This document shows positions 25,775-42,982 of a stretch of DNA of 44,534 nucleotides, piece by piece. The notes beneath the pieces are model-generated. The model saw only the letters and a list, made by a program, of their open reading frames with translations, was not told the origin of the DNA and did no database searches. The DNA lies in IMG/VR virus record IMGVR_UViG_2734482570_000015. The stretch is one strand, 5' to 3'. The stretch comes from a virus. Its lineage: Duplodnaviria; Heunggongvirae; Uroviricota; Caudoviricetes. The first letter of the stretch is position 1; each line of letters opens with the position of its first letter. The position numbers and the translations under genes are program-made.

Positions 25775-25924
25775 TTCTTGCTCCTCAATCCATTAAAATC
25801 TCAGCAATAGTAGTTGTTACGTCCGCCACTGGCTCAGAGCTGACTATCCGCTAAATTTAGCTCAGTGCCGTAGCTGTGTCAGAACAAACCTAAGCCGAAA
25901 CCGTTTATTACAAAACAATAAATA

Positions 25925-26412: not shown

Positions 26413-26941
26413 ACAGCGAATCAGATCAAATAAAACGCACATTTGTTAACATTTACACAAAGTCTGCGTGGGATATTCTGAAAGAATATCCATAATGTGG
26501 AGAGAATCTATTGAAGTGCATGGTGCCGGGTGCCTCCCGGTGAACAAAATGTTCGTGATACCTGTCGGCGACAGAAAAGGTTAATGGTATCACCCCACCG
26601 CACAGGGGGATTCACCATGCAGGAGTTTTCTTAGCAAACTCACTGCGCGCCCGGCAACTCCCAACCACATAAAATGCGGAGTTTGTGGCATTTATGCATA
26701 TAACTCGCAGGAATTATCTTAAAAAACTGATGTCGATCCGGATTAAAAAGAAGCAGGTCATCATCAGATGACTGGAAAAAAGGAAAACAAAAAATACTCA
26801 TCATACAGTTTTGATTGCAGGGATGAGCCTGCTATGCACAATATGCAGAATATAAGCAAGATAAAAATATGCAGGCATATTATTTCGGATCTTGTTATTA
26901 ACACAACCTTTTTAATAATCATTTGGCATACAATAAACCAG

Positions 26942-27397: not shown

Positions 27398-27940
27398 TCA
27401 AGCCATTTTCTCAGCAAATGATTCACGCATGGGAATATATAGGGCATACTCAGCAACAGCTAACCAATTAGCAATCCGTTTTTCGCATGTGCTAAAACAC
27501 CACTCTGGGTGTGCATCATTTAGCAATTCAGCCATTTTGCGCTTAGTCATCCCCCGCCCTTCATAGCGTTGCCGGAGAATGCAAATCAATCCTGGATGCT
27601 CTGCCAGCACCTCACTTATGACTCGATCAATACATAACGCCTCTGCATCAGTACAATGCGCCAGCCAGCTCTTTTGCTTGCCGTTGATCATCTCTCGCAA
27701 AAACGCTTCCAGCTCAGCTTTCTCTATTCCCGCTTTTTTCATTCTGCGCAGGGCTTCATTAATGGCTGTTTTCGTCAGTTTTTTGGATGCCAACAACTGA
27801 TTGAACATATTCCCTGACCTGCCACCGCCAATATACGACCAGCGCCCCCACATACGTAGTTTTCCCTGAATCCAGACACTTTCCAGCGTGGTGAGGCGAA
27901 GGTGTTCTCCGCTTTTTCCTGTATTCGTTGGGTAAATCAT
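27398..27940 (-). CDS. Late-gene antiterminator Q (putative)
   Basis: 180-aa ORF directly upstream of the tR'-like terminator and late genes, downstream of the Nin-region genes; RLTTLESVWIQGKLRMWGRWS segment is reminiscent of the Q antiterminator family (from memory). Confidence 0.6.
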   Translation of the reverse strand: MIYPTNTGKSGEHLRLTTLESVWIQGKLRMWGRWSYIGGGRSGNMFNQLLASKKLTKTAINEALRRMKKAGIEKAELEAFLREMINGKQKSWLAHCTDAEALCIDRVISEVLAEHPGLICILRQRYEGRGMTKRKMAELLNDAHPEWCFSTCEKRIANWLAVAEYALYIPMRESFAEKMA

Positions 27941-28227
27941 AAATGACCTTTCTTTCTCCAGATTTCTTGTGTGCGAAAAACCCCTTCAGCATGCATCAGG
28001 CGCAATTCTTCTTTGGTGTAATCGCTGGTTTTTACCCGCCCGTCGATTAGATCGTGGCATGAGCTACAGGCTATCGCCGCCTGCATATCATGTGGTTTTG
28101 TCGCTGTTCCGCACGTCCCCGCCAGCCTGTAATGCGCCAGCACAGAGGTTTCGGGATTGTGATTGCAGTAGCCAGGGATTCTGATCTGGCACATCTGGCC
28201 TTTAGCCGCTTTACGTAAATTCACCAT
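27937..28227 (-). CDS. Nin-region Cys-rich protein (DUF1364 / YbcO-like putative nuclease)
   Basis: 96 aa with a Cys/His cluster (CQIRIPGYCNH...CGTATKPHD...CSSCHDLIDGR); sits upstream of Q as in other lambdoid prophages. Confidence 0.55.
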   Translation of the reverse strand: MVNLRKAAKGQMCQIRIPGYCNHNPETSVLAHYRLAGTCGTATKPHDMQAAIACSSCHDLIDGRVKTSDYTKEELRLMHAEGVFRTQEIWRKKGHL

Positions 28228-28826
28228 TACGCAAACTCCAGTAGTTGTGCGGCCACATTTTCAACTTCCTCCTGAGAGGAGAATTTACGGAACAGAATCC
28301 AGTTCCACAGCACATTCAGTACAGATTTATAAACCTGCTGAAACTCGACTTCGTCCATATTCGCAAAAGCGATGGATTTTGCCCGACGCCCACGGCTACC
28401 GTCCGGATAAATATGCTCGGTGTAAAATCCGGCCTGAATGGTTACCCACTCGCGGAAAGCCTCAAACGACTTTAGCAACGCCGTATCCCGGGTTCTACGA
28501 GTCGCAACGGTGTTAAGGTATTGCTCTGCGGCATCACTCAGGGCTGGCGTGTGTTCCCGACCAACTGATTCGCACAGGTAATCAACGAAACCAGACAGCA
28601 GTTCTCGTTCGCGAGGCGTGATCGCCCCACCGACCGGAGTCCAGTAATCGAATCCCAGTTGCAGGAGTTTGAAAAAACGCTTGTGGAATGCGTAGTTACG
28701 CACACGCTTAAAGTCTGCGTGTATCCACTCACCTATTTTGATTTGATGCAGAAAATCGCAACTCTCCGGCGTCGCCGGGAGAAGTAAACCAGAAGAGGTT
28801 TGTTTGACCAGTTGTATATGCGCCAT
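28227..28826 (-). CDS. Nin-region protein (DUF1367-like, hypothetical)
   Basis: 199-aa ORF coupled to the downstream gene by a 1-nt overlap; family assignment tentative. Confidence 0.45.
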   Translation of the reverse strand: MAHIQLVKQTSSGLLLPATPESCDFLHQIKIGEWIHADFKRVRNYAFHKRFFKLLQLGFDYWTPVGGAITPRERELLSGFVDYLCESVGREHTPALSDAAEQYLNTVATRRTRDTALLKSFEAFREWVTIQAGFYTEHIYPDGSRGRRAKSIAFANMDEVEFQQVYKSVLNVLWNWILFRKFSSQEEVENVAAQLLEFA

Positions 28827-29106
28827 TTCTCAATCTCTCGATGGCGCAGCGCAGCAGATGCCAGTTGTTCAGGCTGACGAATAAAGTATAAATAAACTGG
28901 CTATGGTGTAAAGCCCCACATAGCATGAACAAACACTACATATCAAATAGCTGGTACAAGGATAGAAATACGACACTTATTATTAAAAACGATTAGATAA
29001 ATTACATTTTAATGTTATGCAAAAGTTCTTTTTTATCATAACATTTCAATAAAAGCATTACAGATGCAATCATCCCGTCATCATCAATTATTTAAGGTGG
29101 TTAAAC

Positions 29107-29193
29107 ATGGAAAATAACAAGTTCGCACATCTCGCTCCTTTTTTATCCGTAATCCTTTTCGCTTGTTGTTTTATATGGGCATTATTTTTATAA
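29107..29193 (+). CDS. Candidate 28-aa hydrophobic small protein (MENNKFAHLAPFLSVILFACCFIWALFL)
   Basis: ATG preceded by AAGGTGG at a 6-nt spacing; single predicted transmembrane segment; located in an AT-rich noncoding stretch of about 800 bp. Confidence 0.35.
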   Translation: MENNKFAHLAPFLSVILFACCFIWALFL

Positions 29194-29639
29194 AGTAGCC
29201 ACATGATAAGTTGCTGGAATCATATTTCCCACTCAAGTCATTAACATTTGATAAGATATATCTAAAAGGACGCCTTTACATTATTTATGCGTATATAATT
29301 TATTTATATACACAGTAAAGGTATCCTGGGAAAATATTTATCGTTAAAAAATACATCATAAATAATTAAGCTGAAATTTCAGAACACAACTAATACACAC
29401 AATAAGGTTCAGTAACAGTAATCTATGTGGACTACATCGAGATTTTTTGATTAAACTTTAATAACTTATTCCTAACACACAGAATGCATAAACTAAAAGT
29501 AAAACAAATAGTTATACGAAAAACAACCATATTTATTCTATCTTCTCCTCTAATCAACATATCAATTATGTGTTTCATAACAGCTTGACATAACCCTCCA
29601 AAAGATGCATTTTTAATGCATGTTTTGGAGGAGGTGGTT

Positions 29640-29978
29640 ATGACACACAAGAGAATTCCTAAAGATTGGGTAATCAAACGCTCAACTCCGTTCTTCACAA
29701 AAGAGAACGTACCTTCAGCGTTATTAACACATCATAATACAGCAGCAGGTGTTTTTGGGCAGTTGTGCGTAATGGAAGGCACTGTAACATATTATGGTTT
29801 TACTGATGAGAATGCTACTGAACCGGAGATAAAAGTAGTCATTAATGCTGGCGCTTTTGCAACAAGCCCACCACAATACTGGCACCGTGTTGAACTAAGC
29901 GATGATGCTCAGTTTAATATTAACTTTTGGGTCGCTCCAGACTTTTCGGGCGAAAAAGTCTATAGCACCAAAAAATAG
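29640..29978 (+). CDS. YeaR / DUF1971 family protein (tellurite-resistance-related domain); plus-strand moron
   Basis: 112 aa from the ATG preceded by GGAGGAGGTGG; RSTPFF and FNINFWVAP motifs resemble E. coli YeaR as recalled; opposite strand to the flanking phage genes; followed by a terminator. Confidence 0.6.
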   Translation: MTHKRIPKDWVIKRSTPFFTKENVPSALLTHHNTAAGVFGQLCVMEGTVTYYGFTDENATEPEIKVVINAGAFATSPPQYWHRVELSDDAQFNINFWVAPDFSGEKVYSTKK

Positions 29979-30006
29979 ATGATCATATTAAAAATGCTTT
30001 AACAGT

Positions 30007-30043
30007 CAGACCCGGCAGGGCTATCCCCGACGGGTCTCATTTT
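30007..30043 (+). terminator. Rho-independent terminator after the YeaR-like gene
   Basis: AGACCCG ... CGGGTCT stem followed by CATTTTTG. Confidence 0.5.
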
Positions 30044-30598
30044 TGTAAATATATTGGTTCTACATTGACAGGAGACTTCAACCATAAGAAGTAATCTGAA
30101 TACTTGAGCAATAAATTTACTTAAGATTAATGAGCGCACCTTGCCGGACAAAGATAAACCAAGGTAACACCTTTTTTCTAGCCAGTATGTAATCAATCAG
30201 AAAGCCGCTCCATAAGAACAACAGCAAGACAATAAATTGCCATTACAGCCGCAATAGCCAGCGCACATTTGAGAACCAGCACGACAACCCCCTGTATTAG
30301 ACGCACACCAGTCCTGATAAATATGAGGCTGTCTCGTCAGTGATTCAATACAACTATTGGGTATAGTTTCTGTGATTTTATTCTGTAGAAATGGAACACA
30401 ACAACCAGTCACCACCAGCACTTCCTTAAATGCTCTAAGTCAGAAACAAGCCAACATTTTAGTCCGCTTTGAGCGATCTGCAGACATTGCTAGCAGCCTT
30501 CTGTGTGAATTCTCAGGGAGCAGGTCGGCATAGCATCACGTTGAGGCTCTTACCCTACTTGTTCACACCAACCCTAACTCCACAGACTGATTCATAAA

Positions 30599-31600
30599 TT
30601 AGTAATCTGCGTGTTTCGCACTTTTCAGAAATGCTTTCATATTTTCATTAGGTCGCTCAATTTCGAAGTTACTTCCATATAACTCTTGTAATTTTGGCCA
30701 TAACTTACTTAATAACCCTCTCCTGCGATAAAATGGATGTATCCAAACGGTAGATAGGTACGGAGAATTTGCATTTGAATTGTTTATTGTGACCAGCCCA
30801 ACTAAACATTGTCGATAACCACTATTATCCATTGATTGTATTTCTTCGACGAATGGATACGCGATTACATCAGTCCAACCATGATCGGTTGTATCCCATT
30901 GCATTCCGTCATGACATTCCTTCGACTGATAGCGGCGTAAAGCTACACACGCGAGCTTTTGCCAATCTGGAGAATTAATTGTGATCTCTTCATCGTATGA
31001 CGCGCCTATTGGAGCGGGTATTGGTCTGATTAATCCAGCATGGCATTCATCATAGAACTTCATGTTTCCCTCAGAAACGTTGTGTACGTTGGGTTGCTCC
31101 ATGTGTGCGCCATTCAAAAATAGCTCTGATAGTAGTGTATCTACACTGTAATCTTTATTGATTATTGTCGGCTTAGAGTTTTTCTTATTAAGGCCGCGAG
31201 TAACGATTTTTTGATCAATGTTAACAACATGGAATAATCCGTCGGGGAGGCTAGCGAACCACGATGGGGCATCGGACCAGAATAGCATGCCTTTTGTACT
31301 TCTTAAGAGTTTAATTAAGTTAATACAAGCTTCTTCACTAGTCTTGCCGTTGATGCGAAGTATGTTAGGACTAAAGTAATATTCATCCATATCAGGGAAT
31401 GCAGCTTCGCAAAACTCCTGTACATAATTTAGCACCTGGATTCTACAGAGATCATCATAGCTGGTAATAACTAAGGGGGTATCTTCATTACTATTATGAT
31501 TATCAATAATGCAATCTATAGCGAGACTTACTGCTTTGCGTATCACTTCAGTTGAATCTAACGACTCTAAAAATTTTGTCTTTCGTGTGCGAATATCCAT
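30599..31600 (-). CDS. Hypothetical protein (333 aa) with GNAT-like C-terminal region; downstream gene of the low-GC cassette
   Basis: C-terminal segment ...YRQCLVGLVTINNSNANSPYLSTVWIHPFYRRRGLLSKLWPKLQEL resembles the GNAT acetyl-CoA-binding region (h-x-P-x-Y-R-x-x-G); N-terminal 200 aa unassigned; AT-rich coding sequence. Confidence 0.6.
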   Translation of the reverse strand: MDIRTRKTKFLESLDSTEVIRKAVSLAIDCIIDNHNSNEDTPLVITSYDDLCRIQVLNYVQEFCEAAFPDMDEYYFSPNILRINGKTSEEACINLIKLLRSTKGMLFWSDAPSWFASLPDGLFHVVNIDQKIVTRGLNKKNSKPTIINKDYSVDTLLSELFLNGAHMEQPNVHNVSEGNMKFYDECHAGLIRPIPAPIGASYDEEITINSPDWQKLACVALRRYQSKECHDGMQWDTTDHGWTDVIAYPFVEEIQSMDNSGYRQCLVGLVTINNSNANSPYLSTVWIHPFYRRRGLLSKLWPKLQELYGSNFEIERPNENMKAFLKSAKHADY

Positions 31601-31615
31601 GTATGACCTGCGCTA

Positions 31616-32638
31616 TTAAAATTCATGAATGAACGGTTTGTCATCTGGTTGCAAAATGGTGGTTTTATTCGTTGCTACATTTAAACTGTTGTAGAGCATA
31701 ATTGCCAGGTTCGATGCATTTTCAATCAGCGTTTCAAGATCCTGGTCTGTAATCACTACGAGGTTCCCTTCTTTATCCTTTCCACCACGATGCACTAAGT
31801 GATTTCGATTGAGGGTTGCCAATTCAATAGCTTCTATCGGACAGTCTTTTTGTACTTTTATATCGAATGTAGCTTCATAGCGGTCGATTACCTTTTTAGT
31901 GCTATGCCAGCTTGCACTGATCAAGTGTTCCTTGATTGACCTGATTAGCTCTCCCCTAATTTTCTCGATGGGTTCACCCTTGAAAGGCAACGCAGCAATA
32001 TCTTTGCTTACTTTAAATTCAGTCTTACCTTTTTCTATACAATTGGCTATGTAGACATCATCTTTCTCTATAGAATTAATGAATAGCTCAACATAAAGCG
32101 TTTCCAAAGCTGTAATAACATTCGTGTAGAGCAAACTAAGCAAGTGGTTTTTTTGCTGTTGTTCAGTTTTATCTTTTGCAAGTTTTTTTATTTTATCGAT
32201 ATTATCAATGAATTTTAAATACGGATTACCGGAAGACGTTACAGCGTCGTAGATATCATCATCGTACCAATCATCTATATTATTTGAGTTTCCAGACCAG
32301 TCAAAACATTGTGTTTGTAATTCATCTACTAATTCCTCAATATACTCAGATTTAACATATTGACCGAAGATGGATTGTAGTTCTTCGCTCGCATCATACG
32401 GCCCGCCATATATGTAAGCATAGCCACCTTCTCTACTTTCATACGGACAAGCATTTGCCGGATCTTCAAAGTTTTCAAAGAACCAGTTTTTCATTACTTC
32501 GAGTTGATCTTTTTTGCTTATGTATTTTAAAGATTTTAGTGGAACTTTCTTTCCATTAACCTCGAAAACAATTTTCACGATGTAACGCTCCCTTGTATCA
32601 ATTGCGCAACTATTATACCACAGCGAAATACAGGGCAT
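31616..32638 (-). CDS. Hypothetical protein (340 aa) with C-terminal R-x4-H HEPN-like motif; upstream gene of the low-GC cassette
   Basis: Start ATG has an AAGGAGG Shine-Dalgarno sequence 6 nt upstream. C-terminal region contains ATLNRNHLVHRGG (R-N-x-x-x-H). Gene is AT-rich; 15-bp spacer to the downstream gene. Confidence 0.6.
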   Translation of the reverse strand: MPCISLWYNSCAIDTRERYIVKIVFEVNGKKVPLKSLKYISKKDQLEVMKNWFFENFEDPANACPYESREGGYAYIYGGPYDASEELQSIFGQYVKSEYIEELVDELQTQCFDWSGNSNNIDDWYDDDIYDAVTSSGNPYLKFIDNIDKIKKLAKDKTEQQQKNHLLSLLYTNVITALETLYVELFINSIEKDDVYIANCIEKGKTEFKVSKDIAALPFKGEPIEKIRGELIRSIKEHLISASWHSTKKVIDRYEATFDIKVQKDCPIEAIELATLNRNHLVHRGGKDKEGNLVVITDQDLETLIENASNLAIMLYNSLNVATNKTTILQPDDKPFIHEF

Positions 32639-32776
32639 AACCTGCCTCCTTAAACTAACATACCATGAGCCAGCAATGTCCGCTATTGGCACAAAGCGGA
32701 CAACCACGCTAGCTCTCCCCTGTGCCAGAAAAATGTCAATTTACATATGAACTAATGCTCTTTGATCTAGTAACGT

Positions 32777-33193
32777 CTATAAATACCGAAGATTTCCTTG
32801 ATAAAATGCCAGTACACGTTTCATAACTTCACTCTTCCGGCACTCGCGACAGATTATGTTCTGACGCCTGTCATAGCGGCGTATTTCTCCGTCTGGTAAT
32901 GACCAGATAAGGTCAGGATCAACCACAACCGTTTTTTTCACCTTTGCCCTGGATAGTTTTTTGCGGGCGTTTTTCCAATCCTTACGAGCCTGTTCAGACG
33001 GGAATAACCCATAGCCAGAGTTGTATACATCGCCACTGGCAACCAACTCTCTGGCAAGAATGCTCATCAGATATCTTGTCGCACCTGTCTTGGCCTCCAG
33101 TTGCCTTAACGTCTCGCGCCCACTCTGGCGTACCAACTCAACAACCTGCTCCTTAATTTTTTCACGCTCTTCCTGTGTAAAAACTTTTGCCAT
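32777..33193 (-). CDS. Hypothetical protein (138 aa) with C-terminal CxxC
   Basis: ATG at 33193 is preceded by GGAGG; tightly packed after the ydaW-like gene. Confidence 0.5.
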   Translation of the reverse strand: MAKVFTQEEREKIKEQVVELVRQSGRETLRQLEAKTGATRYLMSILARELVASGDVYNSGYGLFPSEQARKDWKNARKKLSRAKVKKTVVVDPDLIWSLPDGEIRRYDRRQNIICRECRKSEVMKRVLAFYQGNLRYL

Positions 33194-33208
33194 AAGCGCC
33201 TCCGGCAA

Positions 33209-33970
33209 TCACTTTTCCGACACAATACGACTGGAGGAATCGACAATCTGTCGGACAATATCCCGGTGCTTGTTCAGCTCCCGCAGCGCGGCGCAGACTC
33301 GCTCCCACTTCTGGACATGATTTTTCGCCCGACGCAGTTCGCGGTTTGCCATATGCAGCGATGGTAAAACTAGGTCATCCGCTTGCGTTTCAGTAAACGA
33401 TGGCAGCGACTGCACAATGTCCGCCACAGTTTCTGTTTTAATATCTTCCTGTGTTGCCGCTTCCTGTACTGGTAACGCAACACCGGCTGGCTGAGGAAAG
33501 GCTTTACCATCAGTTTCCGCTACCGATGCAGCTTTCGGCTCTGCTGGTAAATTATCGCCCGGCATGCAGTAACGAAATTTACTGTTCTGGTTTACGCGAA
33601 TCAGGCGTCCTTTGCTGATTGCCATTGCCAGCGTTGAAGCAACTTTGCGGGATGTTGTACCGAACAGCGTAGCCAGTTCATCCGCCGTTTGTGGTCCGCG
33701 TTGTTCAATCGTCGCGGTTAAATCGCACTCTGAGATTTTCACTACAGTTGCCGTGGTGGTTTCTTCCGGCAGTTCTGCCTGCATTGGCTGTTCCTGCTGA
33801 ACGTTGTTATCAGCCACACGCCAGGTGTACGCGCTTTTATCAACGAAACCAGCTTTTTTCAGTTCCCATAGTTCGTTCAGCACTTCTTCACGACTGATAT
33901 CAAGTCGCGCAGCAAGTTCTATGGATGTGGCTTTTCCCATTGCTTTCAGTGCGTCAAAAACAGTCTCCAT
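33209..33970 (-). CDS. Replication-region protein with N-terminal winged-helix-like domain; possibly the intact form of the K-12 ydaW pseudogene
   Basis: 253 aa from the ATG with a GGGAGGAAA Shine-Dalgarno sequence ([43 protein letters not shown]); immediately downstream of ydaV. Confidence 0.55.
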
Positions 33971-33992
33971 AAAAATTTCCTCCCGGTAAAAA

Positions 33993-34739
33993 TTACTTCT
34001 CAATTCCTGGCTGGACGACATTCGGACGCCAGCTCTCCCAGTTAAAATTCACCCATCGCCCGCCGTTCATGGTCATGCGATCCATAATCCGCTCGCCGAG
34101 CAATGTTTTCATGGCCTCATAGTTCAGGTTTGTCAGCATCCCCACGCTGCGCATCGACGCTGTCCGGCGATCAACAATCTGGTGCAGCACCACCTGCTCG
34201 TTTTTCGTCTCGCGCTGAATGCCAATTTCATCAAGAACCAGCAGATCCACTTCGCATAGTTCCCGCAAAAATTTTTCGCCTGACTGCCCATCGTCATAGC
34301 TGGCGTGCAGGGCACTCATAACATCAGCCACGGTAACCACAATCACTGTCTGACCGTCTTTCAGCAGGCGATTCCCGATAGCTGCCGCTAAGTGGTTCTT
34401 CCCGGTACCAGGTTTTCCGCTGAACGCAAAATTTGTACACCCGGTCATCAGTTCATCAGCGATGGATTTCGCCTGACTCAACGCGTATCGCTGCGCTTCG
34501 TTCTGCACCTGGTAATTCGAAAACGAGCATTTGCGGTGCAATGGCTGGATGCCAGAGCGATTCAGAATTTTTTCCACCCGCAACTGACGATTCTGACGGT
34601 TGATCTCCTCACAACGTTTCTGGCCTTCGGAAAGTTGCCACTCGCGCCACTCCGCTACCGTCTTGAATGGCGCGGTTACATGTGACGGGGCCAGTCTGCG
34701 GATACGTTCAAGAACGTCGCCTGTCGCAATATTTTTCAT
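33993..34739 (-). CDS. ydaV: DnaC-like replication protein / helicase loader (AAA+)
   Basis: 248 aa with Walker A ([15 protein letters not shown]) and Walker B (LLVLDEIG) motifs; matches Rac YdaV in size. Confidence 0.8.
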
Positions 34740-34745
34740 GGTCAG

Positions 34746-35603
34746 TTACCCCCTGAAGCCTGGCGGGATCGCACTATCCGGTAACGAGACGGTGTTAACC
34801 TGTCGGAGTAACGTCTCAGGTCGAACACCTTTCGGCGCGAACAAGCCCTGGTATTCATTGGCGATGCTGTGTCGAATCACCTGCTCAGGTGAAAAACCCT
34901 GCTGGCGGAATTTTTCCAGCTCCCGTATCGCCCCGTTAGCGCCCTGCTCCGTTCGAATCGGTTTTCGCAATGCCTGGCGAAATTCAACCCACTCACGCCA
35001 AAGCGAGACAGAAATCCAGTTCGGCAAAGCAATATCCAGAGGGTCAAACTTTTTGACACCTCGATTCCCCCGGGGGGGATTTAGGGGGGGATCTGTTTTT
35101 AGATCTTTATCTGTATCTTTATTAGTTGCCTTTGTGTTGACATCATGTTCAAACACCACTTCAACATCTGTTTGAACACCTGTTAAATTTCTCTCTTGTT
35201 TTGTTTGAACATCTGCTTCCTTTCTGCTTCTTCTGGCCTGAACAGATGCTTTTCCTGCGGCTGATTTTTTGGTTAATTTTTCCCTGACTGATGCCAGATC
35301 TTCCTCAATCCGAAGATGCACCCATTCCTCGCCGTTATCGCAAAAAAACTCCTGCAAGGATGGTTCAACATCAGCCCATCGCTCGTTAGTCAGACGGGCA
35401 ATTTTTGCCAGCCTGTTTTTAGGTATTGGCTTTCCTGTTTGCCAGTAATTGAACATCAGCAACAAATACGCACCATGCTCCTCTGCTGACAAATGCATGG
35501 TGTCAGCCAGGTAATCAGCTATGTACAGTTGCATGTATGGTAATGCGGCCATAATTGCCCCGTATGATGCTGCCCGGTGGCTTAGAATAAGCACAAACAG
35601 CAT
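34746..35603 (-). CDS. ydaU: Replication initiator-like protein (YdaU, DUF1376)
   Basis: 285 aa, the K-12 YdaU length; upstream of the DnaC-like gene; contains an internal iteron-like repeat cluster. Confidence 0.75.
   Translation of the reverse strand: MLFVLILSHRAASYGAIMAALPYMQLYIADYLADTMHLSAEEHGAYLLLMFNYWQTGKPIPKNRLAKIARLTNERWADVEPSLQEFFCDNGEEWVHLRIEEDLASVREKLTKKSAAGKASVQARRSRKEADVQTKQERNLTGVQTDVEVVFEHDVNTKATNKDTDKDLKTDPPLNPPRGNRGVKKFDPLDIALPNWISVSLWREWVEFRQALRKPIRTEQGANGAIRELEKFRQQGFSPEQVIRHSIANEYQGLFAPKGVRPETLLRQVNTVSLPDSAIPPGFRG
35060..35215. repeat. Candidate replication origin inside ydaU: G/C homopolymer palindrome, AT-rich stretch, and three copies of TGTTYRAACA
   Basis: cccccgggggggatttaggggggg at 35067-35090; AT-rich ttttagatctttatctgtatctttattag; TGTTCAAACA at 35146 and TGTTTGAACA at 35169 and 35202. 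Confidence 0.45.
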
Positions 35604-42793: not shown

Positions 42794-42982
42794 ATGTATA
42801 AAATTACCGCCACTATTGAAAAGGAAGGTGGCACTCCTACTAACTGGACAAGATATTCAAAATCTAAACTAACGAAATCAGAATGCGAAAAAATGCTCTC
42901 AGGTAAAAAAGAAGCAGGCGTTTCCAGAGAGCAGAAAGTAAAACTGATAAATTTTAATTGCGAGAAACTTCAGTCCTCGTGA
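42794..42982 (+). CDS. ydaC: YdaC (small Rac protein)
   Basis: 62 aa beginning MYKITATIEKEGGTPTNWTRYSKSKL; lies between ralR and xis as in K-12 Rac. Confidence 0.6.
   Translation: MYKITATIEKEGGTPTNWTRYSKSKLTKSECEKMLSGKKEAGVSREQKVKLINFNCEKLQSS

Follow-up and report, generated by a model that had tools for sequence, protein, structure and literature searches.

Within the window, that is, the whole stretch of 44,534 nt that was analysed, a 2.24 kb cassette spanning positions 30462–32701 lies on the minus strand inside a Rac-like E. coli prophage, where it occupies the slot 3' of the DUF977 gene in the prophage backbone. The cassette carries two genes, referred to here as A and B, and its boundary arms are hairpin inverted repeats of 24–33 nt (Table 1). 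The two co-directional reading frames with a 15-nt gap that an earlier note on this DNA had described were found on the minus strand at 31616..32638/32707 and 30599..31600, and the LNRNHLVHRGG and IHPFYRRRGLLSKLW segments that it had quoted are both present in the translations. From the dN/dS values (0.14–0.18 for gene A, 0.19–0.28 for gene B), both reading frames are real genes under purifying selection. A tRNA scan of the whole window identified none.

Table 1. Features of the cassette, listed from its 5' to its 3' boundary
Feature	Position	Strand	Description
5' boundary arm	32669..32701	(-)	Hairpin GTCCGC-TTTGTGCCAATA-GCGGAC, then ATTGCTGGC; inverted repeat I1
Predicted extended -10, TGGTATAAT	32612..32620	(-)	From sequence reading; inside the cassette, downstream of ATG 32638, between both candidate starts of A
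Gene A	31616..32578	(-)	320 aa from GTG 32578, WP_014639476.1; PHROG 17908 (function unknown); predicted stand-alone-type HEPN effector
A residues 1–115	32234..32578	(-)	HEPN/RES N-terminal domain 1 (PF18870); invariant GGP, conserved DP..PYESREGGY.YIYGGPYDA block
A residues ~120–300	31679..32221	(-)	RiboL-PSP-type HEPN; all-helical bundle
HEPN motif R258-N-H-L-V-H263-R264	31787..31807	(-)	Rx4H; putative catalytic
A-B spacer	31601..31615	(-)	15 nt; 14–15 nt in every intact pair
Gene B	30599..31600	(-)	333 aa, WP_000354966.1; PHROG 16994 (function unknown); novel N-terminal domain and C-terminal GNAT
B residues 1–200	31001..31600	(-)	α/β domain; matches no family or fold
B residues ~205–333	30602..30988	(-)	Minimal GNAT acyltransferase domain; stops after helix α4
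Loop R292-R-R-G295-L-L297	30710..30727	(-)	Putative acyl-CoA pyrophosphate loop; compare GNAT motif R/Q-x-x-G-x-G/A
3' boundary arm	30462..30494	(-)	GCTAGCAAT, then hairpin GTCTGC-AGATCGCTCAAA-GCGGAC; inverted copy of the 5' arm

The G+C content of the cassette is 39.0% (36.1% for the A coding sequence, 39.1% for that of B), compared to 49.5% for the replication genes on one side (32702–35603) and 49.1% for the Nin-like genes on the other (27398–28826). Its GC3 is 0.35, compared to 0.47–0.61 for the comparison genes. The AT-rich block proposed earlier is confirmed by calculation as far as its composition is concerned (39.0% against ~49% in the flanks), but its extent had been drawn too narrowly, as AT-richness continues to position 28827 and the segment beyond the cassette (28827–29615) has 30.5% G+C.

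A start for gene A at ATG 32638 had been put forward as well. While this codon and its AAGGAGG Shine-Dalgarno sequence do exist, it is probably not the true start, judging from the RefSeq protein of 320 aa and from an alignment of full-length homologues, which begin at the MKIVFEV position corresponding to GTG 32578. In diverged copies, ATG 32638 is replaced by ATA or TTG; GTG 32578 (ATG in the copy L102) and its AAGGAG-type Shine-Dalgarno sequence are kept. The predicted extended -10 element (TGGTAYAAT) is conserved as TG(G/A)TA(T/C)AAT in the diverged copies that cover the site, Aeromonas included, the sole exception being L102 in which it is partly deleted. Consensus promoter and terminator scans gave no more matches than expected from shuffled sequence, and the predicted -10 was not listed by the consensus scan because of its poor -35.

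Domain composition of proteins A and B

The amino terminal HEPN/RES domain of protein A (PF18870, hereafter NTD1) was overlooked in the earlier note. The Pfam profile scores 21.8 bits on window protein A (residues 46–112 of the 340-aa model) and 25.4–26.8 bits on the closest A-type homologues scanned, slightly under the gathering threshold (GA) of 27.4 bits, and rises above it (27.7–29.4 bits) on proteins that have only this domain in common with A. Precomputed PF18870 matches are recorded for many A homologues, and in P0116 an N-terminal domain of this type is fused to PIN. A homologue search with the N-terminal domain of A alone returned fragments only.

The C-terminal domain of A has the all-α up-and-down helical bundle of the HEPN fold. 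A hallmark of the HEPN superfamily is that its dimers cleave RNA internally without needing a metal, and HEPN folds are known also from non-catalytic proteins and from housekeeping proteins. The RiboL-PSP-HEPN profile (PF18735, GA 28.4 bits) does not match window protein A at E ≤ 1 and scores 28.5–36.1 bits on A homologues of 29–58% identity. Within the Rx4H motif, no substitution of R258, H263 or R264 is seen among 107 A-family sequences (26–100% identity). Since window protein A itself falls under the Pfam thresholds, the HEPN and NTD1 assignments rest on the family and on the model; the HEPN domain that had been suggested for the upstream protein is supported by the invariant Rx4H, the fold and the family-level Pfam matches. 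No RES domain was matched by Pfam in A, its C-terminal domain being HEPN. A truncated A allele is present in P0203.

Two families provide the closest comparisons. Proteins that join PF18870 to a RES NADase are experimentally validated stand-alone defence proteins, termed aRES, and act alone (Osterman et al., bioRxiv 10.64898/2026.01.28.702374). They resemble A in their N-terminal domain, in the layout of an N-terminal domain followed by a toxic effector, and in their stand-alone occurrence in Enterobacterales defence islands and prophages. In contrast to the RES effector of aRES, A has an RNase-type HEPN domain, so NAD+ depletion is not expected; A additionally has a GNAT partner with which it is predicted to be co-transcribed. 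The link to aRES through NTD1 makes A alone a plausible complete system. The RiboL-PSP-HEPN family is distantly related to AbiD/AbiF and was originally noted for endoRNase L-PSP fusions and ParB operons (Anantharaman et al. 2013, PMC3710099). It shares with A an Rx4H with N after the R, above-threshold matches among A homologues and a predicted role in RNA-targeting conflict systems. It differs in that NTD1 replaces the L-PSP fusion, and window protein A is too diverged for the model.

Protein B was modeled by AlphaFold2 with a pLDDT of 90.2. Its N-terminal domain has no match in Pfam, the PDB or BFVD and, in a search of 1.84 billion representatives, is restricted to B-family proteins (21 representatives). 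The C-terminal domain adopts the α/β fold of GNAT enzymes, in agreement with the GNAT-like segment noted earlier at the end of the downstream protein. On PF00583 (GA 20.7 bits), window protein B scores 19.9 bits, compared to 27.0 bits for its homologue P0164 and 22.3 bits for P0155. Across 59 sequences, the putative acyl-CoA loop always has R292, has G295 in 45 of them and ends in L or M, never in G or A. Residues W286, H288 and P289 are conserved in 58 of the 59. The AlphaFold2 model lacks the usual C-terminal strands of a GNAT domain. With the imperfect loop and these missing strands, B may act by binding rather than by transfer.

The GNAT fold is shared with the type II toxins TacT, AtaT, ItaT and KacT, although B is twice as long, has its unique 200-aa N-terminal domain, is without the C-terminal strands and has sequence similarity to them no further than the generic GNAT profile. 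By analogy with these toxins, acetylation of aminoacyl-tRNA leading to a translation stop is one plausible output of B. GNAT/RHH modules (TacAT, AtaRT, KacAT) pair an RHH/DUF1778 antitoxin with a toxin of ~170 aa; no such antitoxin reading frame is present in the cassette, in which B (333 aa) has a HEPN protein of 320 aa beside it. The abortive-infection systems ApeA, AbiJ, PD-T4-5 and PD-T7-3, which are small or consist of one HEPN protein, and the toxin-antitoxin system HepT/MntA are also prophage- or plasmid-borne and keep a HEPN effector inactive until infection or partner release. Their models gave no PADLOC sequence match and the N-terminal domain of A differs; moreover, the partner in HepT/MntA (type VII) is a minimal nucleotidyltransferase (MNT), whereas B has a GNAT fold and no NTP_transf match.

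A search against PADLOC-DB v2.0.0 identified no system, the best E-value being 0.01 for A (a partial match to PglX) with none for B. The earlier expectation that the pair lies outside known defence models and toxin-antitoxin families was borne out. NCBIfam gave no usable match for A or B, sequence profile searches of the PDB found no relative of either, and a literature search for the A-B pair returned nothing relevant.

Boundary arms, variable cargo and neighbouring genes

DNA homology with cassette copies in other backbones begins at the 5' arm and stops at the 3' arm. An identical cassette is found in a second, Qin-like prophage backbone, and 205 of 5426 complete E. coli genomes (~4%) carry it, including APEC/ExPEC lineages. 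Among INPHARED phages, the flank was matched and the cassette was absent. The proposal that the block represents cargo acquired by a variable slot of the prophage is supported. The hairpin motif of the arms marks the junction to variable cargo in at least 120 viral contigs, and in prophage hotspots the same arms flank other cargo of at least 39 types. The bracketed cargo includes DarTG, AbiH, PD-T7-1, PD-T7-5, TIR, SAVED-HNH and a Gabija-like ATPase/helicase pair, and is sometimes metabolic (MFS transporters, dehydrogenases, LysR regulators). Lambdoid sites share the arms with probable P2-type sites and with sites in genomic islands.

The arms were compared with integron attC sites. Across 39 cassette types, R-T-T-R follows the 5' hairpin and A-A-Y precedes the 3' hairpin. 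Whereas an integron cassette has attC with RYYYAAC/GTTRRRY cores and IntI, the arm site has its two halves placed symmetrically on either side of the cargo, with no IntI nearby. Extra cassette-specific terminal complementarity of the attC R'/R'' kind was not found (3.9 of 12 positions, compared to 4.05 with shuffled partners), nor were Rfam families at the arms. A literature search for the arm motif returned nothing relevant, any earlier accounts of repeats flanking P2 loci being outside its reach.

Prophage defence hotspots have been described at the P2 Z/fun and tin/old loci and in P4 (Rousset et al. 2022, PMC9122126). Like these hotspots and like phage morons, the cassette is AT-rich, variable cargo with its own (predicted) promoter at a set position of a conserved backbone, the cargo there being rich in defence systems. 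It differs in its location, after the DUF977 gene of lambdoid prophages of the Rac and Qin types, and in being bounded by conserved hairpin inverted repeats.

In other strains, the same slot holds SMODS and SLATT or QueH/Hok. In Aeromonas, the pair adjoins Thoeris. Stand-alone A genes neighbour toxin-antitoxin modules, integrases, SIR2 genes and prophage ends, and distant B homologues adjoin Abi_2, AAA_13 and HerA-like genes and are also found on an ICE. Neither the neighbouring DUF1971 gene nor QueH, a slot occupant in another prophage, is an obvious defence gene. While such association is not proof of a defence role, related prophages hold known anti-phage systems in this slot and the cassette is therefore probably a defence cassette as well. 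The defence role proposed for the pair is thus likely from context. The cassette might instead be non-defence cargo, serving lysogenic conversion or phage benefit (host translation or RNA remodelling, acetylation-based counter-defence) or being merely selfish. The metabolic cargo of some same-arm cassettes, the commonness in phages of GNATs without an assigned role, and the DUF1971 and QueH genes would agree with this. It is improbable nonetheless, given the strictly conserved HEPN Rx4H, an N-terminal domain in common with a validated defence family, and defence neighbours that recur in unrelated genomes.

Linkage of A and B and the proposed function

The spacer length is retained across intact pairs whose B proteins range in identity from 100% to 78%, and A and B co-diverge with similar dS. 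The gene upstream of the pair in Aeromonas encodes 138 aa and is unrelated to DUF977, so the cassette unit consists of two genes. The upstream gene was rejected as a part of the cassette on these grounds. Linkage is limited to one Enterobacterales/Aeromonas clade. A is spread across many phyla and stands alone in 78 of its 80 best genome loci; it is found without B already at 75–76% identity and throughout the distant lineages. B is a rare gammaproteobacterial gene which, at 62% identity or less, is found without A in other mobile elements with other neighbours. As A and B are not linked outside this clade, neither protein requires the cooperation of the other, and the "two-gene system" of the earlier note is not established.

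It is possible, if rather less probable than a single defence unit, that A and B are defence or accessory genes which work independently of each other, were brought together on a single occasion and hitch-hike without functional coupling. A would then be a complete HEPN counterpart of aRES, and B a sensor-GNAT system in its own right that acts on a different target. The separate distributions favour this, as does the single action of aRES proteins and a natural variant, L097, in which A is deleted and B is intact behind the same promoter. However, A and B have no hairpin arm between them, while adjoining systems in the arrays L094, L096 and L100 are bracketed individually; the 15-nt spacer and the weak Shine-Dalgarno sequence of B suggest coupled expression; and the pair is kept together over the full identity range and across genera.

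Quite unlikely is a toxin-antitoxin-like pair with an enzyme as antitoxin, following the type VII logic of HepT/MntA, in which acylation by B, of A or of its substrate, would neutralise the HEPN RNase until phage infection brings relief. Within the paired clade, loss of A with B kept is observed, the reverse was not seen among ~30 loci, and truncated A alleles occur, all of which speaks for this reading. In contrast, A homologues both close and distant have neither B nor another conserved partner, and A is therefore not toxic constitutively. The effector gene precedes that of the modifier behind one predicted promoter, B carries an extra 200-aa domain and has a stand-alone distribution of its own, and no MNT or RHH-type partner was found.

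The best explanation, which stands at about an even chance, is that the cassette is a self-contained, horizontally mobile, abortive-infection-type anti-phage unit with A as its core effector. It would probably be a new phage-defence cassette, not a revolutionary one, built from known parts. In such a unit, the predicted promoter inside the cassette would drive A and then the co-transcribed B. NTD1 would keep the HEPN RNase of A silent until infection, as in aRES. Upon a trigger, the pairing of two HEPN domains would create the Rx4H active site, and the resulting cleavage of RNA (tRNA, rRNA or mRNA) would arrest translation and phage growth. B, with a sensor-like N-terminal domain and a small GNAT, may be a second, independent acylation arm or a modulator of A. 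More doubtful is a further extension, whereby A and B form an undescribed two-component immune module. Here the sensor-GNAT would license, restrain or complement the NTD1-HEPN RNase, as an acylation analogue of HepT/MntA AMPylation control, and the module would ride in unrecognised hairpin/TIR-bounded cassettes that shuttle defence systems among lambdoid prophages, P2-like prophages and genomic islands.

If the cassette defends its host, the aRES logic of one sensor domain with swappable toxic effectors would extend from NAD+ depletion to RNA cleavage, a second tractable E. coli model for the NTD1 sensor domain would become available, and a GNAT-containing family of no known function would join the defence repertoire. 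The conserved hairpin arms provide a sequence handle for new defence cargo in enterobacterial prophages along with a testable idea on how cargo is swapped. From its share of complete E. coli genomes and its presence in APEC/ExPEC lineages, the cassette could influence how susceptible clinical and poultry strains are to phages.

The cassette within a Rac-like prophage

The gene content of the window is that of a Rac-like prophage. Its genes are ordered as intR, xisR, ralR/RalA, recET and kilR, then ydaS/T/U, a dnaC-like gene, DUF1627 and DUF977, and finally DUF1367/DUF1364/DUF1133, lysis genes, trkG and structural genes; the arrangement matches a RefSeq locus at ttcA of E. coli FORC_081. The sRNAs RalA and STnc100 are familiar features of Rac-like prophages.

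The two co-directional ORFs described in the earlier note are present on the minus strand and encode protein A (upstream) and protein B (downstream). Both are real genes under purifying selection, with dN/dS of 0.14–0.18 for A and 0.19–0.28 for B against copies 78–92% identical. The low G+C content claimed for this block holds, with 39.0% in the cassette against 49.5% in the flanking replication genes and 49.1% in the Nin-like genes, and a third-position G+C of 0.35 against 0.47–0.61 in the flanks. The proposed extent was too narrow, as the AT-rich tract runs past the cassette and through the plus-strand DUF1971 gene to 28827. The stretch from 28827 to 30461 is a second AT-rich one that adjoins the cassette.

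Features of the cassette and its surroundings in the window
Feature	Position	Strand	Details
ORF A	31616-32638	minus	as first drawn; open frame to 32707
Probable start codon of A	32578	minus	GTG
Predicted extended -10 element	32620-32612	minus	TGGTATAAT
ORF B	30599-31600	minus	15 nt from A
Cassette hairpin arms	32669-32701 and 30462-30494		inverted repeats, GTCCGC-N12-GCGGAC
Third hairpin-like site	25821-25844		GTCCGCCACTGGCTCAGAGCTGAC; one mismatch; between two TolA-like ORFs, late region
Apparently non-coding stretch	28827-29615		790 nt; 30.5% G+C
DUF1971 gene	29616-29978	plus	opposite to cassette
Two terminator-like hairpins	30204-30258	minus
RalA, antitoxin sRNA of RalR/RalA type I toxin-antitoxin system	42800-42978	minus	Rfam, 225 bits
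STnc100 sRNA	26464-26650	minus	Rfam, 86.6 bits

The ATG at 32638 with its AAGGAGG sequence exists, yet A very probably starts elsewhere than had been supposed. When full-length homologues are aligned they start at MKIVFEV, the position of the GTG, and A is 320 aa long in RefSeq. Across seven backbones whose upstream regions were aligned, the proposed ATG becomes ATA or TTG; the start codon is kept (GTG, or ATG in locus L102), as is an AAGGAG-type Shine-Dalgarno sequence before it. The extended -10 element between the two candidate starts is also kept, partly deleted in L102, so the cassette seems to have a promoter of its own. A consensus promoter scan did not flag this element because it has no good -35.

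Predicted domains of A and B

Protein A from the window gave only a sub-threshold Pfam match, to HEPN/RES N-terminal domain 1 (NTD1, PF18870; 21.8 bits). Precomputed matches to PF18870 and PF18735 are present on many of 121 A homologues. When family members were scanned directly, they scored near the gathering threshold for PF18870 and above it for RiboL-PSP-HEPN (36.1, 30.8 and 28.5 bits; threshold 28.4). In an alignment of 107 sequences reaching down to 26% identity, R258, H263 and R264 of RNHLVHR are invariant, as are E159, W224, H225 and the GGP core of the N-terminal domain. RNHLVHR is the HEPN Rx4H motif, and the invariant residues together with the family scores support the earlier suggestion that A is a HEPN protein. 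Truncated A alleles also occur (P0203, 155 aa, 105 member sequences).

The N-terminal domain, which could not be seen in the first reading, recurs fused to a PIN nuclease in protein P0116 and joined to other C-termini in alphaproteobacterial proteins. It is also joined to a RES NADase in aRES, a stand-alone anti-phage family of E. coli, Klebsiella and Enterobacter for which a preprint of January 2026 gives experimental validation (Osterman et al., bioRxiv 10.64898/2026.01.28.702374). Lacking a RES domain, A falls outside aRES; with the N-terminal domain in common, it is the HEPN counterpart of the aRES architecture.

In the C-terminal GNAT domain of B, the loop after strand β4 reads R292-R-R-G295-L-L, where R292 never varies and G295 occurs in 45 of 59 sequences. 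The G/A that closes the canonical motif is absent and the domain stops after helix α4; thus, acyl-CoA binding is plausible but catalysis uncertain. The first 200 residues of B make up an α/β domain without detectable relatives: when 1.84 billion representatives were scanned in full with HMMER, it turned up only in 21 B-family representatives, of which the full-length members are about 330–346 aa.

Linkage of A and B

A belongs to a large and mostly solitary family; when a single genome of each species was scanned, 324 relatives from many phyla came up. Its neighbors are heterogeneous, and B lies downstream in 2 of the 80 best loci. No B accompanies A at 76% identity in Aeromonas taiwanensis or at 75% in Yersinia alsatica. 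B belongs to a small gammaproteobacterial family whose relatives at 62% identity or less are never accompanied by A. These occur alone or with other neighbors, on an ICE, beside an Abi_2, AAA_13 ATPase or HerA-like ATPase gene, or in a Shewanella prophage. On two marine metagenome contigs, L115 and L116, a B homologue (46% identity) lies 43 nt upstream of a gene for a 754-aa AAA_13 ATPase (E 4e-129), which may be a different two-gene arrangement of the B family.

Within one clade (B at least 73% identical, A at least 84%), A and B are always adjacent, with a 14–15 nt spacer wherever both genes are intact. Their identities fall in parallel (A from 100 to 84%, B from 100 to 78%), and dS is alike for the two genes in Escherichia, Serratia, Aeromonas and metagenomic Enterobacterales. 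The constant adjacency, spacer and co-divergence therefore indicate that the pair is a stable bicistronic unit, while neither protein needs the other in general. A natural derivative (L097, 1424-2957) retains the promoter, B and both hairpin arms, with A deleted from the leader to the last 25 or so codons; the converse, loss of B with A kept, was not seen among about 30 loci of the paired clade. In E. coli MB56, two ISSen4 (IS3-family) copies flank A and part it from B, and in E. coli O78 strain 3 an IS2 (IS3-family) lies between the DUF977 gene and A.

A and B may cooperate in this clade or simply travel together; two independent genes is the less favored reading, though a real contender. A type VII-like toxin-antitoxin pair, with A acylated by the GNAT protein B, is improbable. 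The stand-alone occurrence of both proteins argues against B as an obligatory antitoxin.

Hairpin-bounded cargo and a predicted role in defence

DNA homology to copies in other backbones sets in at 32701 and stops at 30462-30525, and the inverted hairpin repeats form these ends. Read on the coding strand, the 5' loop is TTTGTGCCAATA and the 3' loop AGATCGCTCAAA; when cassettes are compared, the reverse-complemented 3' loop consensus agrees with the 5' consensus at 10 of 12 positions. The pattern occurs three times in the window against 0.1 expected by chance, and the third site may mark another cargo junction.

The observations on these arms cover loci L140-L259, L092, L094, L096, L100 and L138 besides the window. 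The 5' hairpin was found in at least 120 IMG/VR contigs. Upstream lie a few backbone classes, either lambdoid, beside P2-type sheath/tube genes (a probable P2-type hotspot), or a preceding 3' hairpin. Downstream lie 64 unrelated sequence classes (120 viral contigs), 39 of which are closed by a 3'-type hairpin 0.5–5.8 kb on. The arms bracket at least 39 cargo types in lambdoid and probable P2-type prophage hotspots and genomic islands. The cargo begins with R-T-T-R and ends with A-A-Y; its exchange could be site-specific, or RecET or Red could recombine it over short homologies. A different 2.3-kb hairpin-carrying unit at the 5' end of umuC (L092, 8347-10662) has a 5-bp duplication (TCATT) and is missing from a closely related contig (L090, 8342-8346); this insertion looks like a transposition-type one.

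The identical cassette also follows the DUF977 gene of a second prophage backbone, which is Qin-like. Other strains have QueH with HokD, a run of small genes, or SMODS with SLATT behind the same hairpin in this slot. In addition to SMODS with SLATT, hairpin-bounded cargo includes ORFs matching PADLOC models for PD-T7-1, PD-T7-5, DarT, DarG, AbiH, an Argonaute-associated nuclease, SAVED-HNH, ThsB-like TIR, LmuA and several PDC candidates. On metagenomic islands, hairpins enclose each of the consecutive units, among them a Gabija-like ATPase/helicase pair and the A-B cassette, and no hairpin ever parts A from B. In Aeromonas (L131-L133), the pair lacks arms and adjoins Thoeris (SIR2-STALD ThsA and TIR ThsB) and further TIR proteins; a conserved 138-aa gene precedes the pair, and one strain has the pair beside a class 1 integron region. 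By association, the context points consistently to defence. Some metabolic genes are also among the cargo, and a function other than defence is given little probability.

HEPN, NTD1 and GNAT are known parts, and a sensor with a toxic effector on a prophage moron is a known logic. No PADLOC model, PDB relative or paper found covers either protein or their pairing. The more unusual feature may be the hairpin-bounded architecture. It is not claimed as new, since Nilsson et al. in 2004 are reported to have described repeats on either side of foreign DNA at variable loci of P2.

The leading proposal, held at roughly even odds, is that A would be activated by infection as a HEPN ribonuclease and cause translational arrest, and thus abortive infection. 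By analogy with aRES, which acts alone with the same domain, NTD1 may be the sensor or autoinhibitor. B, as a sensor-GNAT, would either provide a second, acylation-based arm or tune A.
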